Shown: positions 3,348-55,856, numbered from the stretch's first letter. The stretch is DNA of 64,000 nucleotides from Candidatus Latescibacterota bacterium (GCA_965203805.1 OZ241917.1:5600001-5664000); one strand, 5' to 3'. Made by a program: numbers and translations. Notes: generated from the letters alone by a model not told the origin.

Positions 3348-3410
3348 CCTGCCTTCTGAGCAGAACTGGGCCTGTCTGCCGGTCCAACGGGACAGGTAGG
3401 CGCAGGCAGG
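3348..3410. repeat. Nested mini-hairpin insertion (degenerate copy of 5932-5994)
   Basis: Outer 33-nt element with inner 30-nt element at 3371-3400; flanks also resemble those at 5932. Confidence 0.8.
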
Positions 3411-3709
3411 TGTTCTCGCTTCCGGGTGTCGCAGCTGCAGGTTTCAGTTTGCAGCCGTCAGCTTGCAGCGGTAAACGACACGGCCTGTCGGCGCCGAGCG
3501 GCGGCGTTTTTTTCTCCCCTTTTCCCTTAGCGAGAAAAATACTGGGCCTAAACAAATAAAAAACAATAAGCTATGATTTGCAATTTAGATTCCGTAATCG
3601 CGCACCTATATGGCGTAAGCGAGTCGCAGTTCATCCACATCTTCGAGACTTTTCACGAAGATTGGGATAATCAAGCGCGCTTGGATGCAGCGCTGCGCCA
3701 TTTCCGGAC

Positions 3710-4873
3710 ATGGAGGAGTCGCCAATGACACTGCGCGTCAATGTCAAACCGGAGATGTTTCGCTGGGCGCGCGAGCGGGCGGGCATTCACGTGGACGCTC
3801 TCGTTAAGCGATTTCCCAGGTATCCTGAGTGGGAAAGCGGTGAGAAACAGCCGACGCTCAAGCAACTGGAGAAGCTTGCCCGGGTCACCTATGCGCCGAT
3901 CGGTTCGTTCTTTCTCTCTGCGCCACTTGATGAACCGGTCCCTATACCTGACATGCGAACGATCGGCAATGAGTTCGTCGGACGGCCCAGCGTCGAACTT
4001 TTGGAAACTGTTTATCTCTGCTTACGGCGCCAGGATTGGTACCGTGACAATGCACGCATTGAGGGAGAAGATCCGCTGGCGTTTGTGGGTTCCGCTACAA
4101 CTGGCAGCGACGTTGAGACCACTGCGGAAGAGATTAGAGCCGAACTGGGTTTCGACGTCGAGGAGAGGAACGATCTACGTACCTGGACCGAGGCGCTAAG
4201 ACGCTTTATTCAGCAGGCCGATGCACTGGGCGTATTGGTGATGACAAGCGGGATCGTTGGCAACAACACCCGCCGCAGGCTGGACCCCGAAGAGTTTCGG
4301 GGCTTCGCCCTGAGCGACGATCTTGCACCACTTGTCTTTATTAACGGTGCCGACACCAAAGCGGCTCAGATGTTTACGCTGGCACATGAACTCGGGCACA
4401 TCTGGCTTGGCGAATCTGCGCTTTCCGATGCTGACGTGGTTTCCGTGCCTGCCCACGAAATAGAGGGTTGGTGCAACCGTGTCGCCGCCGAGCTTCTCGT
4501 GCCACTCAGGTCCTTACTTGAGAGTTACCGTAAGAGGGAGGAACTTCCAATCCAGCTGAACCGCCTTGCTCGCCAATTCAAAGTCAGCACCTTGGTCGTA
4601 CTGCGTCGGCTCCACGATGGCGGCGTGCTCGACCGTGATGCGCTTGGGTCCGCCTACGCCCAAGAACTGGATCGAATAGGCAACATTGAAAAGACGAGCG
4701 GCGGGAGCTTCCATCCCACGCTCAAGGCGCGTGTGGGTGGGCGGTTTGGCGGCGCCATTGTGACCAGCACACTGGGAGGGAGGACTTCGTTTTCCGAGTC
4801 CTTCCGTCTTCTCGGAATCAAGAAGGCATCGACGTTACGGGCATTTGCCACAAGTCTGAAAGTGGGATCGTAG
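3710..4873 (+). CDS. XRE-HTH plus ImmA/IrrE-family metallopeptidase
   Basis: N-terminal HTH (WESGEKQPTLKQLEKLA), FTLAHELGH HExxH motif and EGWCNRVAAELL; directly upstream of a DUF4411-like gene, a known pairing. Confidence 0.9.
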   Translation: MEESPMTLRVNVKPEMFRWARERAGIHVDALVKRFPRYPEWESGEKQPTLKQLEKLARVTYAPIGSFFLSAPLDEPVPIPDMRTIGNEFVGRPSVELLETVYLCLRRQDWYRDNARIEGEDPLAFVGSATTGSDVETTAEEIRAELGFDVEERNDLRTWTEALRRFIQQADALGVLVMTSGIVGNNTRRRLDPEEFRGFALSDDLAPLVFINGADTKAAQMFTLAHELGHIWLGESALSDADVVSVPAHEIEGWCNRVAAELLVPLRSLLESYRKREELPIQLNRLARQFKVSTLVVLRRLHDGGVLDRDALGSAYAQELDRIGNIEKTSGGSFHPTLKARVGGRFGGAIVTSTLGGRTSFSESFRLLGIKKASTLRAFATSLKVGS

Positions 4874-5161
4874 ATGGCATATTTGCTTGATGCAGACGCT
4901 TTTATCCGTGCCAAGAACTTGCATTACGGCTTCGAAATATGTCCTGGGTTCTGGGATTGGCTGGTCACGGCGAACGAACGGGGAATCGTTTTCAGCATTG
5001 AAAAAGTCGCCGACGAAGTCGCAGCCGGCGATGACGACCTTGCGATTTGGGCAGACTGTCCTGGCGACTTCTCCGTTGTCCGGCGACCTGCTTTTTTAGA
5101 CAATTGTGACGGCAACACGAAGGCGAACACGTTACGGGAACTGCTGGGTGTTGCGGGTTAA
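4874..5161 (+). pseudogene. Truncated DUF4411 (PIN-like) protein
   Basis: YLLDADAFIRAKNLHYGFEICPGFWDWL matches the family N-terminus; similarity ends after about 60 aa. Confidence 0.75.
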
Positions 5162-5246
5162 TTTCAATTGAGAACATTTAGGCACACCCGTTCAAGTAAA
5201 TTTCGCGACGGGTTTGTTTAGTCCGAATGGCATCAATTGGAACGCG

Positions 5247-5378
5247 TTAAACGCCAAGACATTCCTGGACGCATTTGGCGCGGAGGATCCGCCGCGTCCC
5301 GAACGCACCACCTATGTCGATTGCGTGATAGACATTGAAGCCATCTACGAAAAACATGGTTCGATTGTAGTGTCTCAC
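5247..5378 (-). pseudogene. NYN-domain (PIN-like) ribonuclease remnant
   Basis: GTG start after AAGGAAG RBS; RTMFFVDGFNVYHAI is an NYN N-terminal motif; stop after about 43 aa. Confidence 0.6.
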
Positions 5379-5396
5379 GTCACTTCCTTTTCTACA

Positions 5397-5432
5397 AAAC
5401 AAAAAAAACCCGGACCCACTTGGGAATCCGGG
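5397..5432 (-). terminator. Intrinsic-terminator-like hairpin upstream of the NYN remnant
   Basis: CCCGGATTCCC-AAGT-GGGTCCGGG followed by a long T run on the minus strand. Confidence 0.55.
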
Positions 5433-5931
5433 GGCTCCAGGATCGTTCTTCTGGAGGGAGGATACAGGATAATAACTAAATCCAGTGATGTTGTCTAGAA
5501 AATCCAAATAAAACAAGCCCTATTCGCGAATTCGAACCAGCCACTGTTTGATCCGGACCGCCTGAGGATGGTCGGGTTCGAGTTTCGGCGCGAAATTCGC
5601 CGACAATGACTCTGGGGAGAGTACCCCGAAAACTTAAAGCTTGAGGATTTGAAGACTCTGCTGAGAAGGATTGGAACTGAATTTAGGGACGAATATCATA
5701 TTCCTCTGCAGAAGCGTTTCTGCTACACTGAGGAATTGTCTAAAGTTGCTGCGTTCGTCCGATGCTTCGTAGACAGACTCAATACAGACAGCGACAATGT
5801 TGAAAAAACGACAAGGGTTGTATCTGAAAGTCAATGATCACCCATCAGTCCACAGCTTGAATCGAAAAACCAATGCGTTGACGTGAGCGCCATAAACCTT
5901 CAGGATCAGAAGAGGCGCATCGAGGGCAAGA

Positions 5932-5994
5932 CCTGCCTGCCGAGCAGAACTCGGCCTGTCTGCCGTTCCAACGGGACAGGCAGGCGCAGGCAGG
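5932..5994. repeat. Nested mini-hairpin insertion inside a REP-like repeat
   Basis: CCTGCCTGCCGAGCAGAACTCGG[CCTGTCTGCCGTTCCAACGGGACAGGCAGG]CGCAGGCAGG; the empty site GGGCAAGA/TGCCCTCGCTCCCGGGAGA occurs reverse-complemented at about 54381-54411. Confidence 0.9.
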
Positions 5995-6106
5995 TGCCCT
6001 CGCTCCCGGGAGAGCGGTGAGACGCAGGACGATTGAGGACCGCACCCCGCCGATCTCGCGCTCCGATTTCTTGCCCTGTTTCTTGTTGTAAACTGCGACG
6101 ATTCAA

Positions 6107-9100
6107 TCATTTCGCAACGCTATCGTGTTGGCTGCTCCCCACACCATTCAGCGATTTTTCAGCTTCTGACGCCGCGTCCTGCATGGCGCCTTCCAGGTTT
6201 TCCACCCTGACCTCGCGCCGGGGCTGCAGGTAGACGAACACCATTTCTTTGACCTCCTTTCCGGTGGCCTCGCGGATGGCGTAGGCATAGGCGCCGCCTT
6301 GAAGGCGATAGTCCTCCTTGAGGGGGCCGGACGCCTCGGCCGCGCTGACGGAATCGGTCTTGAAGTCGACCACCACCAGGTCGCCGTCTTCTTCAAACAG
6401 CAGGTCGATGAAACCGTGAAGGGAACCATCGCCGATGGCGACCGCCACCGGTACCTCACGCCAGAAACGCCTTGAAGCCACTGCCCGCCTCACGATGGCG
6501 CTCTCCACGGCAACGCGAGACAGACGGGCGATTTGATCGTAGCGACCGGGTATGCCCTCCGCCGCGGCCTGAGCGCGGGTCCGGTCATCAATACCGGCGC
6601 CAGTATCTAGGTCGATCGACTGAAGTACGGCGTGGACCGCCCGGCCGACCGACGTTCCCGCACGCCCTCGCCGCCACGGCTCGGAAGACTCGGGCTCGCC
6701 CTTTTGCTCGCGCAAACCACCACCCAGCGACGTCGCCGCTACGGACGAGGGTCGCCCCATTTCGGCATTCAACGCCGCGCGCTGATTCAACCACTTCTCG
6801 CGCGACTCGACGGAGTGCTCTACGTCGTCCTCAGGGTTTAATCCGTCGTCGCGCGCCTCTTGCAGATCCGGTGTTACGACGGGGTCATCCACGCAGATGG
6901 GCTCCCAAAGTCCCGGTGCTTCTGCCAGGTGCCCGGATATCGCACCCGCAGGGGACTTCTGGCCGCCCTTCGCCCGACGCCGCAGACTCAGCACGAGGTG
7001 GTCGCGGGCGCGGGTGGCGGCCACGTACATCAGGCGGATATACTCCGCATCGGATGTCTTTTTCTCCCTTTCGGCCAGTTCTTCGAATCCGTCGGTGAAA
7101 AAACCGAGTTTTTTGGGCCCAAGTCTCACTTCGACGGAGCCCGAGCTGCGGTCGACGAGCAGGGCGTCAGTCATGCTTTTTCTCTCTGAGTTGATTCCGG
7201 TCAGAATGACCACCGGAAACTCGAGACCTTTGGCGGCGTGAACGGTCATTACCCTCACCGCCTGTTCGTCCGATTCCGGTACCGGGGTCTCCGTGACGCG
7301 AGCCCGTTCGTTCATCTGATCCTCTACCCATACCAGAAAGGCCCGCAACGACGTTCCCCCCGAGCCGGCGAACTGGCGCGCCCGTTCCACCAGAAATCGG
7401 TAGCGGCGCCACTGCTCCCGCATGCGCGGGTGTCCGGTCGACGCTTCCATCAATCCGCGGTCGCGGACAAATCGGTCGATGAAACTGCCGGGCGTCTCCC
7501 ACAGACGCCGGGAATGGTAGGCGCTGAGTACGCCAAGAGCATCCGATACCGGGCCGGCGCCGCGTCCGGCCCGTGGATGCAGATAGTCGAATCCACCCCC
7601 GCCTTGAAAGTGCCTGAACAGATCGACGTCGCTGCATCCGAACGCCGGCGAGCGGAGCGCCGCGACAACGGCGACCTGATCGCCGGGATCGTCGATGGCC
7701 CTGAGGCAGTTCAACAGGTCGCGTATTTCCTGCGTTTCGAAGATGAGCGACGCGCTCTCCAGGCGGTAAGGTATTCCCGCGGCTTCAAGGCTCCTTTGCA
7801 ATATCGAAACGCCGGTACGGCCGGGCATCAGAATGCAGATGTCGGAATACGTGACCGATGTGTAGGTCTCGCTTCCGTTAGCCTCCGTAGCCTGACTGTC
7901 CAGTTTCTGCCACCTTTCGTCTGTCATTCGACGAATCAGTGCGGCGATATCCGTCGCTTCCATCCTGCGGATCCCGTCGATGTCGCCTTCCACCGCCACG
8001 TCGGACAGCGCCCAAACCTCCGGGCCGATGCCCGACGCCGGTCCACCGACCCAACGTGGGGCCATGTTCTCATACCCGGCCTGGTAATATCCCTCGTCTT
8101 CGGCTCGTTCCCGATCCTGCCCCATCCATTGTAAAAAAAGACAGTTGACCCAGGCGACGAGCCTCCGGTGCGATCGGAAATTCTGCGTGAGGCGGACCGT
8201 GCGGCCGCCCGCGAGCGCCATCCGTTCCTTCACCCTTTCCATCTGGGCCACGTCGGCACGGCGAAAACGGTAAATCGACTGCTTGGGATCGCCAACGGCG
8301 AATATCGCGCCGTTCCTGGGTTCCACTTGGTCCCATGCTCGAGGACGGGCATCGTCCGTGCGCCCCGGCGGTACGTCTTCGCAAAGGAACATGGCGATTT
8401 CGGCCTGTATCGGGTCGGTGTCCTGGACTTCGTCGATGAGCACGTGCGTGAACCGCCCGCGAAAGTGGTCCCGCACCGGGATATCGTCGCGGAGCAGGTC
8501 GCGCGCCCAGACCAGCAGGTCGTGGAACTCCGCCCGGCCTTCGGATCGCCTCTTCTCGGCGTACTCGAGAGCGAACTGCCGTACCCCCGCGAGAATCGGA
8601 TTCAAGACAGCGTGTCGGACCAGATTCAATTCAGTTTCTGTCGCAGCATGCAACTCATTGAGGCGTTCCTTGAGTACTTTACAGGCGTTGATTCCCGTTT
8701 CATGGTCGACGCGCCAATCCTTCTGGCTGCCCCTGCTGCATCTGAGCGGCAGCATTTGACGCAACAGTTGGTAGGCGATGGGCGATCCCGGGTCGGCATC
8801 CGCGAGCCTGCGTGCGGCTCCCGACCTGCTCTGAACGTGGAGGTACAAAGCGTCGTCGTCGACGGACTTCGCATACCGGCAGAGACGTTCCAGTTCTGGC
8901 CACGTCTTCAAGAGCGTCTCAACCGCTTTAGCGTCCCCGCGCGGCGAGGAATTGAAGCGCTTGCCGTGAAGGTCCGCGTAGTTTTCGTGAAATTCCCTCG
9001 CGGTGCTTCGAAGATGGGCAAGGGTCATGTCCAGCGTGAGGGCCAGCGCGAGGTGAGGCGCGAGAATCGAGTCTTCCTCCAGCATGTCGTCGATCCAGTC

Positions 9101-24621: not shown

Positions 24622-25406
24622 GTGCGCCGTGAAAAGGCGCGGAACTCCAGTGGGTGAGAGTCCCACCCGACAAATGTTGCTGCGGTCGGTAGCAACCGGA
24701 GCGGGGGTGAAGGTAACGACATCTCCGAAGCCTCCGGTGTAAAGGGTCGCAAGGCGACTCGGCGAGTATGCGGGCCGAAACGTGCAGTGAACGCTGAGCA
24801 GGCCTCGAAAAAGGTAATGCGGGAGCCGACCCGCCCATGGATCGGGGAAGGCCGCCGTCGTTGGAAAAAGAGAGCAACGCGCGCATCCAACGGTCCCGCC
24901 TGCCTGTCCGAGGGACGCAGGCAGGCCGGGGTAATGGCGAAGGCACGTATACAAGGAGATCCGACGCAACACGGGAAGCCCCAGCGGTGGTGTATAGACA
25001 CCAACCGGACGCCCGTGAGGGACAGGCCGGGCCGTATGGGGTGGCGGACAGGCTCGTAGTACCCGTGAAGCCGGGTAATGCCGGTGGAGGGAAGGGGCCT
25101 GACTTCGGATGTGCTTGTGAAGGGGACAACGGTCGGGAGAGTGGCGCAAGCCTATTACCTCCTCTAAAAGTAGATGAGGCGACTCCAGAGCAAGCTTGGG
25201 CTTCAGGTGAAGCTGTCCGGGCAGTGCGGGCAGCGTGTGCCTGAAGGCGACGTCCGTCGGAGAGCCGGATGCGGGAAAACCGCACGTCCGGTTCGATGAG
25301 CGGGATGTGGAAACGGAGCACGGAGCGGCTATTGAGGCACCGCCAGACGAAAGGGGCGGAAACAGATAGGCCACTCCTAAACCACCGCGCCACATCTCGA
25401 CTCTAC
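24622..25406 (+). ncRNA. ORF-less group II intron (RT gene internally deleted)
   Basis: 5' GTGCG; domain V GAGCCGGATGCGGGAAAACCGCACGTCCGGTTC; domain VI ending CTCTAC; removal restores GGATTCCCTG/TTAAGCCGCTCGAAG, matching the intact aldolase. Confidence 0.92.
24899..24925. repeat. 27-nt mini-hairpin insertion within the group II intron
   Basis: CCTGCCTG-TCCGAGGGA-CG-CAGGCAGG. Confidence 0.85.
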
Positions 25407-26925: not shown

Positions 26926-27075
26926 CAAGCTTCACATTCACAAGCAAGGAATCCAATGTCGGACACACCGAGTTTCCGAAGGACGACAAAAAAAAGTCAC
27001 GGAGCCGTTGTCAGATGAACGATGTGTGCGAAGTCTCATAATCGTAGAAGGGAACCGACAGATAGGAGGTGTACG

Positions 27076-27879
27076 GTGGATAACGAAGAGTACCTGAAGG
27101 AAGTTAATAACGCGCTTGCGAGAGACGAAACCCTACTCGGACGTGTCTGGAAACACACTTTTCCTGTTGAAAAATCTCCTGACGAGATTTCAAAGGAATT
27201 GGACAAGGCTACAAGCGGTTTCGTCTACAATTATAGGCGTTACCTTGGCGCAATGTTAAATGGAGAAATTCCCGACAAACCAACCCTTGCCAAACAGACT
27301 GAACGCGCTTTGCGGAGTTTCCAAAAGCGGCATCGAGGAGTTCTAAGCAAAGGGACTGAACAGGAACTAAAGCTACGTGAGGAAAAGTGTGCATCAATCG
27401 CAAACAACCCCGAGGAAGTGGAAAGGGAGAATGCAGATATTGAGATTGAAACCATAAGACGAATTGGAGAATTCGAAAAGGCAAACGTACCGGGAATATA
27501 TCTTTATACGTATCCTCGTTATTTAAGTGCGCCGATAGAACCGTCTAATGATGATTCCACCATGAGGACATTTATGAAAATTGGTATTTCCGAGAAGAAT
27601 GCGCGCGAGCGTATCCGACAACAGACTACAGGAATGCCGGAACCGCCGAAGATAATCGAAATCTGGGTCGTTGATAACGATGATGACGTAAAACTGTTAG
27701 AATCCAAAATCAAGCATCACTTAAACACGATAGGTCACGGAAGGTCAGGCAGCAAACGACGGGAGTGGTTCTTGACGAACGAAGAAACAGTAGTATCGAC
27801 CATCAATCTAATTGGTCTCACCCGTTTCGCTGATCACGTGAAAGAAACATCTGCAAACGCGGAGAATGTAGGTGAATAG
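27076..27879 (+). CDS. GIY-YIG (T5orf172-like) nuclease-domain protein
   Basis: GIYLY..MKIGIS..RERI..TGMPE..REWF; AGGAGG RBS and GTG start. Confidence 0.8.
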   Translation: MDNEEYLKEVNNALARDETLLGRVWKHTFPVEKSPDEISKELDKATSGFVYNYRRYLGAMLNGEIPDKPTLAKQTERALRSFQKRHRGVLSKGTEQELKLREEKCASIANNPEEVERENADIEIETIRRIGEFEKANVPGIYLYTYPRYLSAPIEPSNDDSTMRTFMKIGISEKNARERIRQQTTGMPEPPKIIEIWVVDNDDDVKLLESKIKHHLNTIGHGRSGSKRREWFLTNEETVVSTINLIGLTRFADHVKETSANAENVGE

Positions 27880-28544: not shown

Positions 28545-29522
28545 GTGATGACCGTTTGGGCATTTAACCGAGCGACTGATGATGACGCTAGACAATCTCT
28601 GTATCAATCCATCAGGATGGGGAAATCACGTTTTGGCTGGTCTTCGTTAGATGAACACAATTTGAGATTAAAGGATAACTGGTCTGACAATCACTCGAGG
28701 AATTTGTTTCTCTTACAGATAAGTAAGGGTGATTGGATTGTTCACGTAAACACACCGAGTTGGGGACGATGTATCGCAGTTCGGGTGGTTTCGGAATACG
28801 GCTTTGATGAAGGATTGGATGTCCCGTGGGGCAAGGATTTCCGACATTGTTTCGAAATCGACGTTGAATCGATCATTGAATTTAACCGGAGGGATCCAAA
28901 TGTTCTACCGTCAGTCAACTTGAATCCCAGATATCGGTATCAGAGAGTCTATGCAGCTGAGGACTTTCTCAAGTCGATTGAAAATTTGAAACACAACGTG
29001 ATCAACCTCAATTCTGGAGAGAGTAAGGAAGAATTCCACCTGAAGGATGGGACAAACCGATATCTTTCTGAGATTGCGAAACTAATCCACGAAACACACA
29101 AAAGCAAGCGACTTGAGCCATTCCTTGCAAAGGTCTTCCGAAAAATACGTGGCGTGGTTGATGTCGACGAAAACGGTTCTGGTTGGAGAAGCGATTATGG
29201 TGCCGATCTTATCGTTACAATGCGCTCGCCCTTGGGGCACTTGGAGATTGAAAACAAGATCATCGTTCAGATCAAGTCCTTCTCGGGCAGCCACTACGAA
29301 GTTGGCGCTGTTGATCAGGTACAAGCGGGAATTGAGAAATTCAATGGTACGGCTGGGATGATCATAACAACAGCGGGGAAGACCGAAAAATTGGAAAACA
29401 AAATCCGGGAGACATCCGAGGCCATAGATCGACCAATAGATTTACTGGCTGCCGATGATGTCGCAAAGTTCGTGTTAAAGATCGCACCAGAACTGCTGTT
29501 TCGGCTGGACGGAATTTCCTGA
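28545..29522 (+). CDS. Mrr-like restriction endonuclease with N-terminal PUA/EVE-like domain
   Basis: DYGADL..IVQIKS..AVDQV..GMIITT catalytic pattern; N-terminal ISKGDWIV. Confidence 0.75.
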   Translation: MMTVWAFNRATDDDARQSLYQSIRMGKSRFGWSSLDEHNLRLKDNWSDNHSRNLFLLQISKGDWIVHVNTPSWGRCIAVRVVSEYGFDEGLDVPWGKDFRHCFEIDVESIIEFNRRDPNVLPSVNLNPRYRYQRVYAAEDFLKSIENLKHNVINLNSGESKEEFHLKDGTNRYLSEIAKLIHETHKSKRLEPFLAKVFRKIRGVVDVDENGSGWRSDYGADLIVTMRSPLGHLEIENKIIVQIKSFSGSHYEVGAVDQVQAGIEKFNGTAGMIITTAGKTEKLENKIRETSEAIDRPIDLLAADDVAKFVLKIAPELLFRLDGIS

Positions 29523-29835: not shown

Positions 29836-29864
29836 CCAGGGCAACCACACGGGTTGCCCCTACA
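29836..29864 (-). repeat. GTAG-type REP
   Basis: TGTAGGGGCAACCCGTGTGGTTGCCC on the minus strand; empty-site counterpart of 55642-55700. Confidence 0.75.
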
Positions 29865-40904: not shown

Positions 40905-41041
40905 GGGTGACCAGGTTGGGAAGGGGTTGAAATCGGGTTCTCCACGCTCGCGTAGCGCGGCCGATGCACGGCGGATGCATTGGAAGAATCTGGAGCGGTG
41001 GGCATTTTCCCGGCGTTTGTGCCTTTTTCCTGTCTATCCTG

Positions 41042-41074
41042 CCTGCCTGTGCCGTGCTCGGCACGGCAGACAGG
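41042..41074. repeat. 33-nt mini-hairpin insertion
   Basis: CCTGCCTG-TG-CCGTGCTCGGCACGG-CAGACAGG within a low-complexity ATCCTG/TCCATCC intergenic repeat. Confidence 0.85.
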
Positions 41075-44599: not shown

Positions 44600-44836
44600 C
44601 GACCTACCCCCTTTCCCCCTTCCCGGGGGGACGGGGGAACTGTGATCCCGTCACGGTCTCTCCTGGTTTTCTCCCCCTTTCCCTCCGGGAGAGGGGGCCG
44701 GGGGGAGAGGTCTGCGTGCCGTCTGTGCCTACCACGTGACGGTGCAGACGTCAAGGGGTTTGGCTTTTGATTCAAGCTGACGGCTGATAGCTGACAGCTG
44801 CTCTTTGCTGCATCTACCGTCTACCCTCTCCCCGCT
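44600..44836. repeat. Composite intergenic repeat
   Basis: CCCCTTCCC..GGGGG hairpins, a GACGTCAA..TTCAAGCTG unit and GCTGAnn heptamers. Confidence 0.7.
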
Positions 44837-47061: not shown

Positions 47062-47424
47062 TCAATACCCGTAGGCGATTCCCAGGCGAACCGCAGCCGC
47101 CCGCAGATTTCCCTCGGAAGTCCACAGCAGCAGGTCCGACAAGCGGGCCGAAGCCATCAGGTGCGCGTCGATATAGCCAACCCCCGCGGCCGACAACCTG
47201 TGGTGATCGATGAAGTGCAGGACCTCCCGCTGGCTGGCCGAAGATGCCTGCGGTAGCGTCTGGATCAGCGCGAGGAATTCCGTTCTGTTGTCCAGCGTCC
47301 CGCAGGCAAGTTCTCCGACGATCAGCGGATGGCTGGCGACCCTGGCTTCACGAAGGAGCGACCTCAGGCGTTTATTCCCTGAGCGAAGGAACGAGACCCA
47401 TATCGGCGTATCGACAAGGACCAT
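47062..47424 (-). CDS. vapC: VapC PIN-domain toxin
   Basis: VLVDT..W, ELACG, GYIDAHL, LWT; the last conserved Asp appears as E. Confidence 0.88.
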   Translation of the reverse strand: MVLVDTPIWVSFLRSGNKRLRSLLREARVASHPLIVGELACGTLDNRTEFLALIQTLPQASSASQREVLHFIDHHRLSAAGVGYIDAHLMASARLSDLLLWTSEGNLRAAAVRLGIAYGY

Positions 47425-47426
47425 GG

Positions 47427-47624
47427 CTACGGGTTTTCCGGTCGCCGCCTCGGGACCGGCAGCAGGCTCTCCTCAGAGCCCTCGAGTTCCGCGAGGCGTT
47501 TGCTGCTTTCACGGGCGATCAGCGCTTCGAGGCCCAGCCTGACCAGGGCGGTTTTCTGTTTGATTCCGGTTAACGTGGATGCTCGGCTCAGCAGGGTATC
47601 GTCTATATTCAGTGTCGTTCGCAT
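47427..47624 (-). CDS. vapB: VapB antitoxin
   Basis: MRTTLNIDD..KTALVRLGLEALI. Confidence 0.88.
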   Translation of the reverse strand: MRTTLNIDDTLLSRASTLTGIKQKTALVRLGLEALIARESSKRLAELEGSEESLLPVPRRRPENP

Positions 47625-47632
47625 ATGCTATA

Positions 47633-47660
47633 ATATGTATATATTATACATATAAGTCAA
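47633..47660 (-). promoter_or_regulatory. vapBC promoter with palindromic operator
   Basis: ATATGTATA-TAT-TATACATAT palindrome next to a TTGACT -35 element. Confidence 0.6.
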
Positions 47661-47814
47661 TAGTAATAATATGCATAAAACGAAGTGCCGGAGAATCATG
47701 CAAAAAGCCGATGCCGCACGAGATTTGCTTTAGCGAGTAAACGACGGTATGTTAGGTTCGTCATGAACGGCCAGTATCCATTCTGAGCAGGGCAAAGTAT
47801 CTATAGGTAGAGCG

Positions 47815-49647: not shown

Positions 49648-49783
49648 GGGTTTCACCCCGTGGCCCAGTGATTTCGCGGCGCTGACGTCAACGGGTTGGT
49701 TTTGACTCAAGCTAACGGCTGACTGCTGACCGCTGATCGCTGCCTCTCGACGGCCGGGGGGAGCGGTGGCCCGGGGGCAATCC

Positions 49784-50221
49784 ATGTCCGAAAAATTCAA
49801 ACTGATTCCTGAAGCGCACGTTTTTCTGATGAACGGGCGTGACGAAGTGTTGCTGTTGAGACGCTTCAATACGGGATACGAGGACGGGAAGTACAGCGTG
49901 ATCGCGGGGCATATCGACGGGAACGAGGAGGTCCGGGCGGCGGCAATCCGGGAAGCGCGGGAGGAGGCGGGAATCGACATCCGGCTATCGGACATCGAGG
50001 TCGTGGGCGTCATGCACCGTAAGGGTGATGGCGAACGGGTTTCGTTCTTTCTTACCGCCTTCAGGTGGCGCGGCAACGTTGTGAACGCCGAGCCCGATCT
50101 GTGTGACGACCTGTCATGGCATTCGGTCCGCAATCTCCCCGACAATATGGTGCCGTACGTCAGGCAGGGCCTCGAAAACTATCTCAACGGTCGATTCTAC
50201 GACAGTTTCGGGTGGGATTGA
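49784..50221 (+). CDS. NUDIX hydrolase
   Basis: AGHIDGNEEVRAAAIREAREEAG Nudix box. Confidence 0.92.
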   Translation: MSEKFKLIPEAHVFLMNGRDEVLLLRRFNTGYEDGKYSVIAGHIDGNEEVRAAAIREAREEAGIDIRLSDIEVVGVMHRKGDGERVSFFLTAFRWRGNVVNAEPDLCDDLSWHSVRNLPDNMVPYVRQGLENYLNGRFYDSFGWD

Positions 50222-50259
50222 ACATTGAGAAGCCGCGCAAGGCACGAGAGAGGACATCA

Positions 50260-50715
50260 ATGACCATAGAAGACAGGACAATCGAACTCACCGTCCCGAT
50301 ACCCCCTCAATTAAGAGTCCTTCTGGTTATACTTGGCATCGTTCACGTCATCGGCGGCGCTCTCTTTCTCAGCACCGGACACGGCTTCTTCGGGATCCTG
50401 AATCTGGTCCTCGGTCCGTCGTGGCTGTCGTGGGGCCTGTTCTACGACCGGATCAACAGGCATGCCGTCGAGATTCATGAGGGGCACCTGAGCATCACCA
50501 GGGGCCTCTTCAGGAGCCGCAGAATACCGTGGGAGTCGATTTCGGGAATCCACTTTGAGTCGTGGAGGATGGACATTCGGGTTGCCCGAGGAAAGGCCGC
50601 CACAGTGAATTTCCGAGAAATCAGCTCTGGCACGAGCCGGCTGATACGAGACGAGATCGTCACCAAACTCAGACCCGTTGCCGAGGCCAGAGGGGTGTCC
50701 ATAGAGGGCGTTTAG
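50260..50715 (+). CDS. Hypothetical membrane protein
   Basis: GAGGA RBS, two transmembrane helices, then a PH-like beta region. Confidence 0.65.
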   Translation: MTIEDRTIELTVPIPPQLRVLLVILGIVHVIGGALFLSTGHGFFGILNLVLGPSWLSWGLFYDRINRHAVEIHEGHLSITRGLFRSRRIPWESISGIHFESWRMDIRVARGKAATVNFREISSGTSRLIRDEIVTKLRPVAEARGVSIEGV

Positions 50716-50829
50716 CCAACCTGGCACATCGATCATCGTTCATGCAAATCGCAGATGGGTGGCGTCCACTGAAGAAGCGTCTGGCGGGGCGCCGAGACGT
50801 ACAAGAAATTCTCGGGTACAGGACTGACT

Positions 50830-51573
50830 ATGAGCGATGCTTCGGCCGAAGGTCTCAACTATTTCGCGGAAATTGCGGACTCGTACGATCGGGTCCAGCC
50901 GGTCCTGAGCCCTCCTTACGCGACCGGTATCGAGATGATCGTCGATCTGATTCCCTTCGGCTCGGGCGAACCGTTCGAGTTCGTGGATCTCGGGTGCGGC
51001 ACGGCCGAGCCGACGGCGAGGGTGCTGGCGCAATTTCGCCGGTCCGAAGGCAGTTGCATCGACAGTGAACCGGAAATGCTGCGGATCGCGAAGCGCAAAC
51101 TGACGCCGTACGGGGACAGGATCGAATTACGGGAAGCGGACATCACCCGTTGCGCGCTCCCGCCGTGCGACGTGGTGTTTTCGGCGAAGACGTTCCACCA
51201 TATACATCCCGACAATCTGCCCGCGCTGTTTGCGCGGATCGTGGCCGCGTTACGGCAGGGCGGGTGTTTCATCCTCTACGATACGATGTCGGTCGGCCCT
51301 GGTTGGACGGCGGCGGTGCGGCAGCAATCGACCCGATACCGCGAACGTCACGTCCAGCGCGCGATCGACTCAGGATTGGTGACGCGGGAGGAAATCGACG
51401 CCAGGCGGGAATACAAACGAATGATGAAGGCGGCGGGGAAAGACATTGAATACGAGCATCGTGCGGAGGACCTCATCCACGCGATGACGGAGGCGGGGTT
51501 CGACGACGTCGCCGTCGTGTGGCGCCTATTCGCCGACACGATCCTGCTGGCGTTCGTGCCGGGCAATTCCTGA
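50830..51573 (+). CDS. Class I SAM-dependent methyltransferase
   Basis: VDLGCGT, IDSEPEML, FHH, LRQGG. Confidence 0.9.
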   Translation: MSDASAEGLNYFAEIADSYDRVQPVLSPPYATGIEMIVDLIPFGSGEPFEFVDLGCGTAEPTARVLAQFRRSEGSCIDSEPEMLRIAKRKLTPYGDRIELREADITRCALPPCDVVFSAKTFHHIHPDNLPALFARIVAALRQGGCFILYDTMSVGPGWTAAVRQQSTRYRERHVQRAIDSGLVTREEIDARREYKRMMKAAGKDIEYEHRAEDLIHAMTEAGFDDVAVVWRLFADTILLAFVPGNS

Positions 51574-51642
51574 CGAGAATGCGCTCGCTCACTCGCTGAC
51601 TTCCTCCCGCAACTCCTCAGGAGAATAGCTAAAGATAGGTAC

Positions 51643-52952
51643 GGAAGCTCTGATTAAGTTACCTATTGGCACGCCATGCAGAAAGTCGTAGAATTGGAGC
51701 GTGAGCCGTCGTGTTGTGATTTCTGATGGATCGACATAGAACGAGGGGCCCAGGGATGAAACAAATGAGTTTTTCGGATCTGGCGTACAGGACGAAGAAG
51801 AAGCAGACGCGCAGGGAACGTTTTCTGAAAGAGATGGATGCGGTGTTGCCGTGGGAGATACTGCTTAAATCGATTGAGAGGAAGTATCCGAAACCTGGCA
51901 ACGGTCGCCTGCCTGCCGAGTCGGCGCAGGCAGGTCGTCCGATCGGTGCGGAGGTGATGCTGCGTATCTACTTTATGCAACAATGGTATGGATTGAGCGA
52001 TCCGGGAATGGAAGACAGTCTCTACGACGTGGAGTCGATGCGTCCCTGCCTGCTGCAGGCAGGGCTTTGCGGGTGTGAACATCAACGGCGTACCTGATGA
52101 GACGACGATCTGCAAATTCCGTCACTTTCTGGAGCACCATGGGTTGACGGAAGCGTTGTTTCGGCAAACGAAGCGCTACTTGTCCAGGCGGGGATTGATC
52201 GTGAACGAAGGCACGATCGTGGATGCCACGATCATTCACGCGCCTTCTTCGACGAAGAACAAGGATCGGAAACGGGATCCTGAAATGGCCAGCACGAAGA
52301 AGGGCAACACGTGGCATTTCGGCATGAAGGCGCACGTGGGCGCGGATGTGAAGGGACGGGTGCACAGTGTGGTGACCACCCCCGCTTCGGTGCATGATTC
52401 GCAGGCGATGGATGCCTGTCTGCACGGAAAAGAAAAGACCATCTACGGCGACAAGGCCTATGCGGATCAGACGCGAAAAGAACGGGCCGAAGCCAACGAC
52501 GTGGAATGGCGAGTGCTTCGCAAGGCCCGCCGGGGCAAGCGGCTCAACTGCGCGGATGTTTCGTTCAACAAGAAGAGCAATCGCACGCGCGCACGGGTCC
52601 CTGCCTGTGCGTGCTGTCTCACGCACGCAGACAGGGAACATCCCTTTGGGATCATCAAACACCTGTGGGGCTACCGAAAGGTCAGGTATCGCGGTCTGGC
52701 GAAGAATACGGCGCATCTGTTCACCTTGTTTGCCTTGGCTAACTTCCATATGGCACGTCAGGAACTGGCTACTACATAGGCACCCGTGCCTCCAATTCGG
52801 ACGCTGGCGGCCAAAATGGCCGGCACCGAGCGCATCCGGGGCCGGAATCACCCGTGCAAACCCGAAAGATGACGACCCTCTCAACATAAACAGCCTCCGA
52901 AACGACCCATAAGTTACAACTTGCTCATTCCCTCTGGTTGATCAGAGGTTCC
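51643..52952 (+). mobile_element. IS5-family insertion sequence
   Basis: Terminal inverted repeats GGAAGCTCTGATTAA and TTGATCAGAGGTTCC; 4-bp target duplication GTAC. Confidence 0.93.
51756..52779 (+). pseudogene. IS5 transposase carrying three hairpin insertions (one frameshifting)
   Basis: MLRIYFMQQWY, PDETTI, IVDATII, HFGMKAH, YGDKAY, EHPF..K, VRYRGL; insertions at 51908-51934, 52045-52063 and 52600-52635. Confidence 0.92.
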
Positions 52953-53257
52953 GTACCTGTTGTTGGCCAAGTAGCTCCATGAAGTCGCGCTTGGTCTGAC
53001 CGGCGGTTCTAGCCGCCTGTCCAAGTGACACTTTCCCAGTCTCATAGAGTTTGATGGCAAGGAGTATCTTCGCTTCCTCTAGTGACAGTCCGGACGGAAG
53101 CTCGACTCTCAAATCCGTTGTTACCATAGTCATTGTCCCCGTGGACGAAAATTCGCAAGTCTTCGTGACTTAAGAGTGGCCATGTTCACTGCCAGGTAGA
53201 ATATAAATTAACCAGGATCAAAGTCAAAATCCATAACTTCCGGATAACTGTCCGCCG

Positions 53258-54121
53258 CTATTGCGGTCCGGCGCTGACCACGGGCTGCGTCGATTCGTGA
53301 GAGCAGAGGACGACCAGCAGATTGCTGACCATATTCGCACGTTGTTCCTCGTTCAGCTTGATCACGTCGTCGTCCGTCAGGCGCGTCAAAGCCATTTCCA
53401 CCATCCCGACGGCGCCGTCGACGATTTTCGCGCGTGCCGAAATGACCGCCTCGGCCTGCTGGCGCTGGAGCATGGCATTGGCGATTTCCGGTGCGTAGGC
53501 CAGGTGGTTGATCCGCGCCTCCTCGATCTCGACGCCGGCTTCCTGGACACGGTCCTGAATCTCTTTCCCGAGGGATTCGGAGACCTCGGTGATCGAGGAC
53601 CTGAGGCTGATCTCCTCGCCTTCCGACTGATCGTACGGGTAGCTCGTTGCAAGGTGTCTGATTGCCGATTCCGACTGGACCTTGACGTACTGTTCGTAGT
53701 TGTCCACGTCGAACAGGGCCTGAGCGGCGACGCGCACTCTCCACACGATGACGGCCGAGATCTCTATGGGATTGCCCCGGCTGTCGTTGACCTTCAGACG
53801 TTCGCTGTCGAAATTCCTGACACGCAGGGAAACTTTCGTCCGGCTCTTGAACGGGTTCGTCCAACGGAATCCCTGAGTCGTCTCGGTGCCCTTATACTCG
53901 CCGAAGAGCAGGAGAACGACGCACTGATTCGGTTCCACAGCGAATAACCCGGTCATGAGGATAATGTCGATGACGAGAAGCAGGATGGACGCGACAACGG
54001 GAACGGGGCCGCCGCCCGTCACACCATGTATGAACACCACCACGGACACGGCGAGAAGCACAAGCGTTACGAACAACATCAACCAGCCGCTCATCTGGGG
54101 GGTGTTTCTATCTTCCGTCAT
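53258..54121 (-). CDS. SPFH/band 7 domain membrane protein
   Basis: [41 protein letters not shown]. Confidence 0.9.
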
Positions 54122-54339
54122 GGGAGACCTCCGTAGAATGAAATTGGATTGACCCGGGCATGGGTACGATGTCGAAGGGCGTTCCCGCGGTATTCAGGCC
54201 CGGCGCACACGCACAAGTACGACGCGATCGCATTGCATTTTGTTTCGGAAACGACAAGGAAACAACCGTGTTTCCGCATCTGTGAATAACCCATGCAGAT
54301 TGCATAGGTGTCGTCGTTTCCGTTCACAAACCGAATGGG

Positions 54340-54830
54340 CACTCATATCATCTCCCGTCTTACGTCTACCCTCTCACCGTTCTCCCGGGAGCGAGGGCAT
54401 CTTGCCCTCGAAACGCCGTTCTGGTCCTGCCACATGACGGCGTTGACGTCAATGGGTTGGTTTTGGTTCAAGCTGACGGCTGCCTTTTGCTGCTTCTCTC
54501 CCCGGACCTACCCCCTAACCCCCTTCCTGAGAGGAAGGGGGAACGGTGACGGGTCGATGGACCGGGCATGTAAGTGTGCCGGCTGGCGATTTCCTGTCAA
54601 TCAGAGTATCTAAAGATGACCGGCCCGCGACGCCTGACTTTTCTCCCCCTCTCCTCACAGGAGAGGGTCCCTGCCTGGCGGTGGTTTTTCGGCAGGCAGG
54701 GGGGAGAGGTCTGCGCCCATCGACGGCAGATTTCGCCAGGCCGTTTCGTCGTCCCGTGGACGCGGGGTTATCCTCTCCCGTCTCCCGTCTAACGTCTACC
54801 CCTGGGAAGGGGCCAAGGGGAGAGGTCTCC
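54340..54830. repeat. Composite intergenic repeat cluster including a 31-nt mini-hairpin insertion at 54670-54700
   Basis: Shares units with repeats at 5850-6025, 39505-39680, 44600-44836 and 55790-55870. Confidence 0.75.
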
Positions 54831-54843
54831 AGAGTCAATTATC

Positions 54844-55578
54844 ATGCTGACGCAGATCTCATCTTCCGTTTTCTCCTGGTCAGAGATACATGGCGCGGGC
54901 AGAAACGAGCTCTATCCGTGGAACAGCTTTGTCGTCCGTACGAATCCCGGCGACGCCCTGGTCCTCGTCGATCCGCTGCAAATCCCGGATGAAGAAGCGA
55001 GAGAAGTCGAAGCCATGGGCAGTCCCGTGCACATTCTCCTTACCTGCGAGTACCACGTGCGCGAATCGGAGGCATTCAGGGACCGCTGGGGCTGCAACAT
55101 TCACCTCCACCCGGACGGATTGGAACATTCCGAAGTGGCGATCGACGCAGCCTTTCAGGACGGAGACCTGCTGTGGGACCGTATCGAAGTGGTCCACATT
55201 CCCGACGCCCACTACCCGGAAGAGGTCGCGTTTCTGGTGCGGGAAGACGGAGATACAGTGATCGTGGGGGATGCCGTCTGCGGCGGAAGAAAGGACAGAG
55301 GCGTTCCGGACGGTGAAATCTGGATAAATGCCCCGGAGTACATCGCCGATCTCTCGCTGGCGCGAGAATCCCTTCGCAAGTTGGCGGGATATTCATTCGA
55401 TAAAATGTGCTTCGGACATGGATCACCGATCATTCGGAACGCCAGCGTTCGGTTTCGTGAATTCGTCGAAGACGACGCGGCCTGGGATAAGCTTGAATCC
55501 GAGAAAATCGAGCGAACCAACCCCGAGTCGCTCGAATTCATCAGGACAATGGAAGCGAGAAAAACCCGTTGCGGATAA
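54844..55578 (+). CDS. Metallo-beta-lactamase-fold protein
   Basis: VLVDP, HILLTCEYHVR, IVGDA, CFGHG. Confidence 0.75.
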   Translation: MLTQISSSVFSWSEIHGAGRNELYPWNSFVVRTNPGDALVLVDPLQIPDEEAREVEAMGSPVHILLTCEYHVRESEAFRDRWGCNIHLHPDGLEHSEVAIDAAFQDGDLLWDRIEVVHIPDAHYPEEVAFLVREDGDTVIVGDAVCGGRKDRGVPDGEIWINAPEYIADLSLARESLRKLAGYSFDKMCFGHGSPIIRNASVRFREFVEDDAAWDKLESEKIERTNPESLEFIRTMEARKTRCG

Positions 55579-55649
55579 GGCTGTGATCGGATAGTGGTGA
55601 GAGGTTCCCGGGATCGAGGGCATCCTGCCCTTGCCGGGTTGTGTAGGGG

Positions 55650-55682
55650 CCTGCCTGCAGCGCAGTACGCTGCGCAGGCAGG
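55650..55682. repeat. 33-nt mini-hairpin insertion in a GTAG REP
   Basis: TGTAGGGG[CCTGCCTGCAGCGCAGTACGCTGCGCAGGCAGG]CAACCCTTGTGGTTGCCC. Confidence 0.9.
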
Positions 55683-55823
55683 CAACCCTTGTGGTTGCCC
55701 GCCTAACCGGTGTTTCGGATATTACCGTTTGTATTTCGTTGTGCCTCTTTGTCTCCGTGTGATTTCATTTTCGGCATAAGCCGACGCCTGCTTTTGCTCC
55801 CCCTCTCCTCACAGGAAAGGGGG

Positions 55824-55856
55824 CCTGCCTGCCGAGCAGGTCTCGGCGCAGGCAGG
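55824..55856. repeat. 33-nt mini-hairpin insertion in a repeat
   Basis: AGGGGG[CCTGCCTGCCGAGCAGGTCTCGGCGCAGGCAGG]CCGGGGGGAGAGG; empty site at about 44690-44710. Confidence 0.9.

Follow-up and report, generated by a model that had tools for sequence, protein, structure and literature searches.

Probable ultra-small palindromic insertion elements with conserved arms and variable hairpin cores in the genome of a Candidatus Latescibacterota bacterium

Hairpin elements in the 64-kb window

The window analysed here, a stretch of 64,000 nt from the genome of a Candidatus Latescibacterota bacterium (GCA_965203805.1 OZ241917.1:5600001-5664000), contains hairpin elements of 19-36 bases, composed of two 8-nt arms, (CCTG)2 and (CAGG)2, around a variable hairpin core. 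The ten loci listed in an earlier note on this DNA are all present, and a regular expression for the arms gave 11 exact matches in the window (3371-3410, 5955-5994, 24899-24925, 41038/41042-41074, 51908-51934, 52045-52063, 52600-52635, 54670-54700, 55650-55682 and 55824-55856) and none in 100 dinucleotide shuffles of it. The relevant features are as follows, with the strand given for the insertion sequence (IS).

3348..3410: nested pair, a degenerate outer copy of the 33-nt type split by an inner copy of the 30-nt type (3371-3400)
5932..5994: nested pair, outer copy of the 33-nt CG-bulge type, split at CGG^CG; z -4.93
5955-5984: inner 30-nt element of the preceding pair, CCTGTCTG...CAGGCAGG
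24899..24925: 27-nt element in a group II intron, between the D1-D4 and domain V matches
41042..41074: 33-nt intergenic element in unique DNA; z -4.38
44686..44710: paralogue of the 55824 target without an insert, junction 44698; at most 3 mismatches in 24
51639..52952, plus strand: IS5-type IS, host of three elements; PF01609 DDE_Tnp_1, E 3.9e-18
51908..51934: 27-nt element within the transposase frame of the IS5, at a G^T junction
52045..52063: minimal element of 19 nt, also in the IS5, at a C^G junction
52600..52635: 36-nt element, again in the IS5, at a C^G junction
54670..54700: 31-nt element of the GGTGGTTTTT-loop type in a GGAGAGGG...GGGGAGAGGTC host repeat; z -6.10
55650..55682: 33-nt element in unique intergenic DNA; species G001 has no copy at GGGG^CAAC
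55824..55856: 33-nt element at the centre of a host palindrome, ...GGGGG^CCGGGGGG...

All 11 window elements tested by DNA folding form hairpins (z -2.05 to -6.10; 0-7 of 200 shuffles fold as well), the 63-nt pair at 3348..3410 folding at -15.4 kcal/mol with z -2.05. Both nested pairs are arranged as the earlier note had described, including the degeneracy of the outer copy at 3348-3410, and the inner element of 5955-5984 occupies the same position in other genome copies for which empty sites exist. The intron that hosts the 24899..24925 element (genome position 5624899) was identified as a group II intron by its RF02003 and RF00029 matches, and a paralogous empty site of this element lies elsewhere in the genome. 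The CCTG at 41038 is host sequence outside the 41042..41074 element, the related empty sites of which end in ...atcctg^tccatcc.

Architecture and abundance in the genome

Applied to the whole genome (G000), the regular expression found 258 matches, with 114 distinct sequences and 227 merged loci, and its reversed control found none; with a stricter pattern the counts were 166 copies vs. 0 for the reversed control. The variable arm positions are C/G in 174 of the 258 matches, C/A in 47 and T/G in 37, and the outer arms are paired in the MFE fold of 85 of the 114 distinct sequences. As proposed earlier, the arms are conserved and the cores vary; the stems show compensatory changes, e.g., one stem column among 27 distinct 33-mers is C-G in 14, A-T in 10 and G-C in 2. 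The 2-nt one-sided bulge ascribed to most cores is a feature of a part of them: a simple parser run on 227 simple elements assigned a CG bulge to 86 but no bulge to 31.

Subfamilies have identical copies at unrelated sites. One identical 33-mer is present at 12 different site clusters, which points to copy-and-paste, and a T.G or C.A mismatch of the arms is passed on within subfamilies, the T/A combination being absent (0/258), which argues for the copying of whole units. As regards the suggestion in the earlier note that hairpins might be written in when breaks are patched, the faithful inheritance of the T.G arm mismatch argues against de novo symmetric synthesis. Elements also insert into other copies of the family, in agreement with the first description.

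Empty sites and insertion junctions

An ungapped paralogous empty site with at least 90% identity was found for 95 of the 258 matches after removal of the exact matched element. Paralogous, metagenomic, between-species and in-gene empty sites all support the claim of a clean insertion that needs no target duplication. Among the empty sites named earlier within the window, that at 44698 was recovered, but those at 29836 and 54381 were not, at up to 3 mismatches in 24. In independent metagenomes, contigs are devoid of exactly the 27-, 19-, 36- and 33-nt elements: exactly 27 nt (51908..51934) are missing in X1 and X2 contigs, exactly 19 nt (52045..52063) in one X1 contig, 36 nt (52600..52635) are skipped in X1 and X2 contigs, and the 55650..55682 element is skipped in one X1 contig (55647->55681, 3-nt ambiguity). 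The whole IS5-type IS is also absent from X1 and X2 contigs (skip of 1314 nt, 4-nt ambiguity). Source-like runs carry these elements with 0 differences. Presence and absence by themselves are compatible both with insertion and with precise excision.

The base preceding the element is G in 45 and the base following it is C in 39 of 49 unique sites, and 63 of 115 independent site clusters have a G^C junction, the remainder including A^T, C^G and G^T. These last three junctions leave no room for a target duplication, while the G^C junctions fit either no duplication or a 2-bp GC duplication flanking a unit shorter by one base at each end. A DDE-mobilised MITE, with terminal inverted repeats and a target duplication, was rejected on the ground of the ungapped empty sites and of the A^T, C^G and G^T junctions, which allow none.

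With respect to replication, the canonical strand is leading or lagging in a ratio of 46:47 overall; the count of 1:12 in one subfamily is confounded by host-repeat arrays. In the gammaproteobacterial genome G168, the ratio of T-form to A-form is 37:38 (hand count over the first 612 kb among the matches listed). Since neither G000 nor G168 has a replication-strand bias, nothing points positively to a mechanism that works on single strands and is tied to the fork. A miniature derived from IS200/IS605 was rejected, as there is no fixed one-strand tetra- or pentanucleotide target and the orientation is not tied to replication (46:47).

Genomic location of the copies

The earlier note placed every copy in an IS, an intron, a repeat or another copy and found none in intact genes, which does not hold for the whole genome, where 60 of 115 sites are in unique DNA. 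Of the approximately 115 independent sites, 55 belong to repeats; the others are in unique DNA, 46 of them outside ORFs and 14 at an ORF or within one. Before de-duplication, 150 of 227 loci are located in the repeated 5.9% of the genome; the enrichment in repeats is real but modest once de-duplicated (about 159 sites per Mb of repeats vs. about 42 per Mb of unique non-ORF DNA), and selection plus hitch-hiking may account for most of it. One clear in-gene case was verified, a 33-nt copy translated in frame as LPAAQGTAQAG within an intact GH20-like gene. Both G000 and G002 carry this copy, which is absent from the orthologues in G013 and G014.

Occurrence in other species and phyla

The comparison of G000 with G001 revealed one G000-only copy (55650..55682), inserted after the split of the two species, and one shared old copy (55824..55856), which predates it. 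The orthologous site of the latter is filled in G001 too and bears a new, further nested 21-nt copy at CGG^CG. A 20-mer specific to G001 interrupts a hairpin loop at A^T. On this comparison of orthologous sites, the family was active both before and after a species split.

The conserved arms occur in three genera of the bacterial family and in one sister-family genome. Outside this lineage, the gammaproteobacterial genome G168 contains 605 copies; G171 contains 16, and 19-mers of G168 are located, as guests, inside NTS-like hairpins. The shortest forms are found also in unrelated bacterial phyla, including very small genomes, and in viral contigs; the exact 20-mer is present in 68 of the 137 matches listed from species genomes and in 35 viral stretches.

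Relation to known short repeats

The SDR4-6 repeats of Nostocaceae were reportedly described by Elhai et al. in 2008 as very small (21-27 nt) dispersed repeats with precise insertion. SDRs are often embedded in other repeats, and SDR4-6 are not known to have a transposase. A passage of PMC4390886 locates SDR5 insertions within the HIP1 palindrome. Our family resembles SDRs in being made of small dispersed repeats inserted precisely, without duplication, often in palindromes or other repeats. By their description, SDRs would be set apart by unrelated sequences and by a host of another phylum. Unlike SDRs, the window family has an arm and core architecture with variable cores, its elements reach 36 nt and nest in each other, and its minimal forms are common to several phyla and viral contigs. 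The G000 genome is not HIP1-rich (286 GCGATCGC) and is without Photo_RC.

REPs and REPINs are characterised, in passages of PMC3116915 and PMC6006769, as imperfect palindromes of 20-40 nt that number in the hundreds, lie mostly outside genes and supposedly move as hairpins with no duplication of the target. The family studied here shares with them the short imperfect palindromes, the abundance (258 matches) and the low proportion of sites at or inside unique ORFs (14/115). The REP tag at one end is given as GT[AG]G or CGTC in passages of PMC3733652. In contrast, our elements have neither a GTAG nor a CGTC tag, their ends are CCTG...CAGG (258/258, by construction of the search) with flanking G and C, the conserved part is the outer stem rather than a 5' tag, and there is no cognate RAYT gene flanked by the repeats, the richest genome being without Y1.

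The Ssn GIY-YIG nucleases act on single-stranded DNA, and their NTS/SRM hairpin repeats occur in hundreds of copies in many phyla (Chenal et al. 2025, PMC11893778, in part). The likeness to them is that of abundant hairpin repeats in many phyla and, in some genomes, perhaps that of a miniature nuclease gene flanked by the repeats; the passages of that paper drawn on here make no claim that Ssn moves the repeats. The SRM core given there, ATTCCC-N8-GGGAAT, differs from the arms of the window family, CCTGCCTG/CAGGCAGG. Moreover, G000 and G015 are without a small GIY-YIG gene.

Rickettsia palindromic elements are selfish palindromic DNA that encodes no enzyme and can be inserted in frame in genes and translated. 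Mitochondrial mobile hairpin or GC-cluster elements are likewise palindromic selfish DNA (passages of PMC2800124). All these are usually of 100-150 nt or organellar, whereas the window family is of 19-36 nt and has one verified in-gene case. Integron attC sites (57-141 nt) are recognised as a folded single strand, as our elements might be, and share with them inverted arms that are conserved, a centre that varies and bulged bases left unpaired; attC sites have RYYYAAC/GTTRRRY arms, are recombined inside these arms by IntI and lie beside a gene cassette. We rejected an attC identity, as arm sequence and length differ and no recurrent neighbouring gene lies beside the window-family elements.

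Nature of the family and candidate mechanisms of its movement

At the level of sequence, the comparisons demonstrate real elements that insert cleanly, form subfamilies, nest in each other and have their arms in several phyla. We favour, with a probability of roughly 0.55, their interpretation as a non-autonomous, trans-mobilised, ultra-small palindromic insertion element of the SDR/REP kind. An existing copy would serve as the source of the whole unit, arms and core, which would be inserted between two neighbouring target bases, preferably 5'-G^C-3', with nothing duplicated or lost. The moving form would presumably be a folded single strand, and we infer that the work is done by a dedicated enzyme and not by a host repair process; this putative trans-acting enzyme probably recognises both the sequence of the arms and the hairpin fold. 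The first description of the family as mobile, structure-defined and self-nesting is retained, but its confinement to mobile DNA is not. No protein family recurs between neighbouring hairpins in G000 or beside elements in other phyla or viral contigs, and of the six enzyme families tested (Y1/RAYT, DUF559, small GIY-YIG/Ssn, serine recombinase, TnpB and IS110) none occurs in every one of the five copy-rich genomes.

An HUH Y1 enzyme (RAYT or IS200-type TnpA) might move REP-like elements as single-stranded DNA hairpins at the replication fork, as is supposed for REPINs, and hairpin shape and absence of duplication are what such enzymes handle. Y1 matches are present in G000, G001, G015 and G016; in G000 a hairpin lies 7 nt past the stop codon of a gene for a 204-aa RAYT-like protein (NHVH and YIHWNP motifs), and a 1253-aa ORF contains a second RAYT-like domain. 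However, the gene of the 204-aa protein has a different palindrome, GAGGGCA...TGCCCTC, on both sides, no hairpin lies within about 1.5-2 kb of 13 of 14 RAYT-like loci of relatives and the fourteenth has one composite copy, G168 with its 605 copies has no Y1 match, nor do G007, G012 and G003 with 31, 20 and 8 hairpins, and G005 has Y1 matches but no hairpins. The target is a symmetric G^C and not a one-sided tetranucleotide, there is no replication-strand bias, and the motif type resembles subclass 2.1, which is without REP according to the relevant part of Table 1 of PMC6006769. The suggestion of the earlier note that an HUH enzyme is involved finds no support in unflanked RAYT loci, a richest genome without Y1 and unbiased strands, and we regard it as unlikely. 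Unlikely to the same degree is that a DUF559 (Vsr-like PD-(D/E)XK) or an Ssn-kind single-domain GIY-YIG nuclease cuts hairpins or cruciforms and a hairpin is copied in during repair. A strong small DUF559 match is present in 12/12 genomes of family f1 with at least 8 hairpins vs. 2/10 with at most 3, and four of six small DUF559 loci of G016 have a hairpin within 100 nt, one of them on both sides; G007 has one locus of this kind, and two loci in G000 have a hairpin within 260 nt (by chance, 2% of points would be within 300 nt of a hairpin). Ssn nucleases cut single-stranded DNA beside their own hairpin repeats (passages of PMC11893778), a 93-aa GIY-YIG gene of G171 has 20-mers on both sides, and a small GIY-YIG gene of G168 lies 218 nt from a hairpin. 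Yet in hairpin-rich genomes the nearest 1.5 kb is free of hairpins at about 20 other DUF559 loci, six genomes of the sister family combine DUF559 with 0-1 hairpins, G024 has 19 hairpins and, like G168, no DUF559, and in both families the DUF559 genes have different palindromes beside them, CCCCCTTCCT...AGGAAGGGGG and CCCCCTCTCC...GGAGAGGGGG, which are no more than targets of the hairpins. Small GIY-YIG genes are absent from G000 and G015 by PF01541, and 0 of 12 such loci of relatives have a hairpin within about 1 kb.

That no dedicated enzyme exists, and that the palindromes arise or grow through a general host process (e.g., break repair, replication slippage at (CCTG)n, or template switching), is quite improbable. 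Minimal forms in many phyla, including very small genomes, without a linked gene would agree with it, as would the slippage-like range of 1 to 6 CCTG units per arm and the copies at the centre of host palindromes; but identical 27-36-nt cores with bulges and T.G mismatches recur at unrelated sites, which requires templated copying of a whole pre-existing unit, and the flanks in G000 are not more palindromic than random G^C sites. We give very little credence to a serine or tyrosine recombinase that would treat the abutted arms, CAGGCAG-GC-CTGCCTG, as a symmetric core with crossover at the central GC with any target GC. IS607 crosses over at a dinucleotide, and such a crossover would explain perfect inverted arms, the G^C preference (63/115), the absence of a duplication and the occurrence of both orientations. 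It is opposed by 52/115 non-G^C junctions, by the absence of a PF00239 serine recombinase match from G000, G001 and G015, and by the physical implausibility of a double-stranded circle of 19-36 bp; tyrosine recombinases are near-universal. Least probable of all is that the hairpins are not mobile and represent selected functional motifs (terminators, protein-binding or priming sites) spread with host repeats and lost by deletion. The concentration of 150/227 loci in repeats and the orthologous site that has kept its copy from a time before G000 and G001 separated would suit such motifs, but copies lie in transposase frames, an intron, a protein-coding gene and other copies, the same 33-mer is found at 12 unrelated sites, and species-specific gains occur at otherwise conserved sites.

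Results and Discussion

Presence and anatomy of the hairpins

The hairpin family first noticed from the sequence alone in this DNA is real, reproducible and wider in scope than the earlier note had seen. The pattern CCTG[CT]CTG-gap-CAG[GA]CAGG, applied to the window and the whole genome alike, gives 11 matches in the window and none in 100 dinucleotide shuffles; the matches fall where the hairpins had been placed before, and the sequences of the two nested loci agree with their earlier description (^ marks an insertion junction):

window 5932-5994: nested pair, a 30-nt element splitting a 33-nt element at CGG^CG
window 3348-3410: nested pair, the outer copy decayed

All 11 of the window elements tested by DNA folding beat most shuffles as hairpins (z from -2.05 to -6.10). 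The whole genome, one contig of 5.87 Mb with 59% G+C, contains 258 matches of 114 distinct sequences, most often of 33, 31 or 30 nt, and a stricter pattern finds 166 copies vs. none for the control pattern written backwards. A phototrophy marker, sought as a guide to taxonomy, was not found in this genome. The commonest 14-mers of this genome come from a 37-nt CRISPR-like repeat (GTTTCAATCC...CTCTGAG, about 65 copies) that lies outside the window. Within window 3300-6040, direct repeats of about 100 nt lie on both sides of a Peptidase_M78/IrrE-like gene (3710-4873), and the presence of an identical nested hairpin pair in each of them indicates that repeat and hairpins were duplicated as one block.

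Each arm pair consists of two CCTG and two CAGG units, and at arm position 5 a T can take the place of C and pair with G, which on the opposite strand appears as an A facing C. The 258 matches comprise 174 C/G, 47 C/A and 37 T/G arm variants, and no T/A variant. The arm mismatch is inherited by whole subfamilies, which means that the two arms are both templated, neither being regenerated from the other, and rules out models of fold-back or symmetric end-extension. The 33-nt class is built of an arm, CG, a 5-nt stem, a 5-nt loop, a 5-nt stem and an arm, with compensatory changes in the stem (C-G in 14, A-T in 10 and G-C in two of 27 33-mers at one column). The one-sided bulge that had been ascribed to most cores is common in its CG form (86 of the 227 simple elements) but is not universal. 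In the functional-strand test, the 27 oriented 33-mers gave 10 G.T/T.G vs. 18 A.C/C.A mismatches. An arm can have one (in the related genome G001), two, three or up to six CCTG units. The left arm with six units, apparently a tetranucleotide expansion, adjoins a gene encoding a 127-aa GIY-YIG protein in the gammaproteobacterial genome G168 (L251, G168:C1:2534055-2534089).

Evidence of insertion

The presence of an identical 33-mer at 12 unrelated sites indicates copy-and-paste. Taken together, the findings define a non-autonomous, copy-and-paste, hairpin-shaped unit, which inserts as a whole, without target duplication and preferably at G^C. The clean insertion noted earlier is borne out by empty paralogues and by three independent, concordant lines, from other metagenomes, an orthologous spacer and a copy within a gene. 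When the exact element was removed and the joined flanks were searched by BLAST (at least 90% identity, ungapped, covering 20 nt or more of either flank), a paralogous empty site was found for 95 of the 258 matches in the source genome. Of the 49 distinct sites, 45 have G as the last base ahead of the junction and 39 have C as the first base beyond it. The 227 merged loci form about 115 flank clusters, of which 63 have the junction G^C and the remainder have various others, such as A^T, C^G or G^T. At G^C, the lack of duplication is indistinguishable from a 2-bp GC duplication by a unit that lacks the outermost base at both ends, but the other junctions, exemplified by the three copies in the IS5-type insertion sequence of the window (C^G twice, G^T once), leave no room for a duplication.

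In contigs from two other metagenomes, the three elements of this IS5 (27, 19 and 36 nt) are precisely missing, and in one of the two so is the 33-nt element at window 55650, while in source-like runs all those elements are present with zero differences; the comparison was confined to parts covered by contigs and to runs with more than a small share of the sampled words. The IS5 copy (window 51639-52952) is polymorphic, too: in contigs from two other metagenomes, position 51638 is followed directly by 52953 (4-nt ambiguity), and these metagenomes also contain a contig with an intact IS5 free of hairpins.

In the orthologous spacer of G001, the element corresponding to that at window 55824 is present and contains an extra 21-nt copy, nested as usual at CGG^CG, the 55650 element is absent (the site reads GGGG^CAAC), and a 20-nt copy absent from the source genome occupies an A^T junction in the loop of a neighbouring palindrome. 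A 33-nt copy is in frame within an intact GH20-like gene, where it is translated as LPAAQGTAQAG; it is present in the source genome and G002 and absent from G013 and G014, in which the DNA reads ...CTGTG^C/T.... A fold-back or adapter artefact was rejected, as complementarity of the flanks reached at least 8 bases at just three scanned matches and never exceeded 13. Copies are backed by reads from several studies.

Target sites

The earlier note had confined the hairpins to mobile and repeated DNA. In the source genome, 150 of the 227 loci are within the repeated 5.9% of sequence. With flank-sharing copies grouped into single sites and ORF classes taken from a crude gene caller, there are 55 sites in 0.35 Mb of repeats and 46 in 1.10 Mb of unique non-ORF DNA, and 14 lie at or inside unique ORFs (4.42 Mb), mostly at ORF edges. 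Hence, the density of sites in repeats is about four times that in unique non-coding DNA and genes are strongly avoided. This distribution fits selection and hitch-hiking, perhaps with some preference, rather than a targeting of mobile DNA alone, and the targeting claim of the earlier note is weakened.

Certain sites have been struck repeatedly by differing subfamilies, among them CCCCGG^CCGGGG, which is the centre of a host palindrome and is occupied at window 54670 and 55824, and GTCG^CAGAAG, the end of a cassette encoding a DUF559 nuclease (the source genome, G007 and G016). A general targeting of palindrome centres in the source genome was rejected, the mean complementary flank run being 0.90 vs. 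1.30 for randomly chosen G^C positions within repeats. The target adjoins the foot of a host hairpin at 7 of 49 sites vs. 4.6% of controls, which is a weak effect. Microhomology to CCTG/CAGG is enriched without being a rule (13 of 98 half-sites end in YCTG).

Distribution

High copy numbers were found only in three genera of the source family (185 in G001, 136 in G015, 124 in G016 and 74 in G011), and several congeners have 0-3 copies; G005, G009 and G017 are the nearest relatives without copies. In the sister family, 19 copies are present in one genome, G024. In the survey of the phylum, 45 of 168 genomes have at least one match. Runs containing the window are labelled as sponge, coral or marine metagenomes and come from nine studies.

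The (CCTG)2 arms are not specific to the source lineage. In the scan of species genomes, the perfect, CCGG-centred 20-mer makes up 68 of the 137 matches listed, which are mostly 19-20-mers and do not represent a census of copies; it comes from MAGs as well as isolates of many phyla. The gammaproteobacterial G168 contains 605 copies, chiefly 19-mers, and the Omnitrophota genome G171 contains 16. The exact 20-mer is also present in 35 viral stretches, with a maximum of six within one 29.5-kb contig.

Search for the mover

Six enzyme families were tested for their presence in copy-rich genomes and for physical linkage to the hairpins. The properties of the elements lead us to infer a trans-acting enzyme that reads the arms and the fold. 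The HUH enzymes (Y1/RAYT), suggested earlier for this role, occur in four copy-rich Latescibacterota genomes, but 13 of the 14 Y1/RAYT loci are without flanking hairpins, the correlation with copy number is poor and no Y1/RAYT is encoded by G168, so that the suggestion is unsupported and retains a minor share of probability. A similarly minor share falls to a small nuclease, either of the DUF559 family or a small, Ssn-like GIY-YIG protein. DUF559 shows the best correlation within the family, being present in 12 of 12 genomes with at least eight hairpins vs. 2 of 10 with three or fewer, and the proximity of a hairpin (at most 100 nt) to four of the six DUF559 loci of G016 is striking. However, DUF559 loci elsewhere mostly lack a hairpin, sister-family genomes encode DUF559 without having hairpins, G024 and G168 have hairpins without DUF559, and the DUF559 genes possess separate flanking palindromes of their own, which serve as hairpin targets. 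As to the small GIY-YIG proteins, one such gene in G171 (G171:C16:43125-43328) has 20-mers on either side, but none is encoded by the source genome or G015.

Movement by a site-specific recombinase is likewise given a small part of the probability, and another small part is left to a host pathway. Serine recombinases (resolvases) are absent from the source genome, G001 and G015. TnpB, absent from the source genome, G015 and G016, and IS110, absent from G015, were rejected. No recurrent neighbour gene was found beside 20-mers in other phyla, only phage structural genes recur beside them in viral contigs, and only IS genes recur between adjacent hairpins of the source genome. An overall replication-strand bias was not found either in the source genome (46 vs. 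47) or in a hand count of the listed G168 copies (37 vs. 38).

Relation to known systems and significance

The CCTG-armed hairpins behave most like the small dispersed repeats (SDRs) of Nostocaceae, for which, to our knowledge, the mechanism is likewise not known. Rickettsia palindromic elements are another near relative in kind. The nearest described systems also include REP/REPIN-RAYT and the Ssn nucleases with NTS/SRM repeats (PMC11893778). In G168 (L221-L225), several 19-mers are in the loops of hairpins matching the NTS/SRM core CATTCCCGC...GCGGGAATG of the latter paper, and 19-mers often occupy both hairpins of an inverted NTS/SRM-like doublet. The CCTG-armed hairpins do not share the sequence or gene-linkage hallmarks by which REP, IS200-derived elements, MITEs, SRM and attC are defined, and no description of them was found in the literature searched, a scope outside which fall Elhai 2008 and the PMC11893778 supplements. 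We rate the family as belonging among very small mobile palindromic repeats and as itself a new variant, noteworthy for its cross-phylum identity and the missing enzyme.

Tentatively, with a probability of about 0.3, the (CCTG)2 hairpins may represent a cosmopolitan, minimal mobile DNA of 19-36 nt, which is gene-less, has no linked transposase, crosses phyla, possibly via phages, and has as its mover an enzyme or host pathway so far unlinked to transposition, followed by lineage-specific bursts and core diversification, as in the present sponge- and coral-associated lineage. If hairpins of 19-36 nt can indeed multiply to hundreds of copies, nest in themselves, disable insertion sequences, extend proteins by loops and show identical arms across distant phyla and viral contigs, they lie close to the size minimum of mobile DNA, and their mover would represent a new route of DNA insertion. 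The source genome is an unusually good handle, since its many subfamilies, numerous filled and empty pairs and natural populations differing at single copies open the movement of such tiny repeats to tests by comparative genomics and simple biochemistry. On the practical side, elements of this kind cause assemblies to break where their words recur and may pass for regulatory hairpins.

Neighbouring nuclease and RAYT arrangements

Outside the window, an ORF of 1253 aa (G000:C1:4546926-4550684, G000 being the source genome) contains in its middle an in-frame, RAYT-like Y1 domain (HVH motif, YIEQNP), flanked by parts that presumably resemble a DNA methylase or a DUF1156-type protein; comparable frames of 1200-1440 aa with Y1 matches are present in G008, G011 and G016. 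A 204-aa RAYT-like gene (G000:C1:4533506-4534117, in the stretch 4533200-4534500) has on either side repeats of about 200 nt with the palindrome GAGGGCA-N3-4-TGCCCTC, one form of which occurs in 8+8 exact copies genome-wide. This is a REP/RAYT-like arrangement, separate from the CCTG hairpins; copies of its palindrome adjoin hairpins at window 54393-54409 and 55616-55632.

In both families of the order, genes for small DUF559 (Vsr-like) nucleases have palindromes on their flanks, CCCCCTTCCT-N3-AGGAAGGGGG and CCCCCTCTCC-N3-GGAGAGGGGG, which is reminiscent of RAYT/REP and Ssn/SRM. A second type of DUF559 cassette is bounded by ACTCCCCC-N4-GGGGGAGT palindromes (L143, L152, L154, L155, L160), and its gene-less remnants of 110-150 nt, dispersed in the source genome, behave like miniature derivatives.

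L147, L149, L151, L156-L158, L163, L166-L168 (relatives) and G000:C1:3336000-3337100 (with a DUF559 protein at 3336187-3336651): palindrome-flanked small DUF559 genes
G000:C1:4398100-4398270, 5318320-5318470 and 3543800-3543950: second-type DUF559 cassette or remnants

Within the window, a T5orf172/MUG113 (GIY-YIG-like) domain protein adjoins an Mrr-type restriction nuclease (27022-27879 and 28545-29522), and a GmrSD-like gene is at 61350-63143; together, these genes look like a defence-island context.
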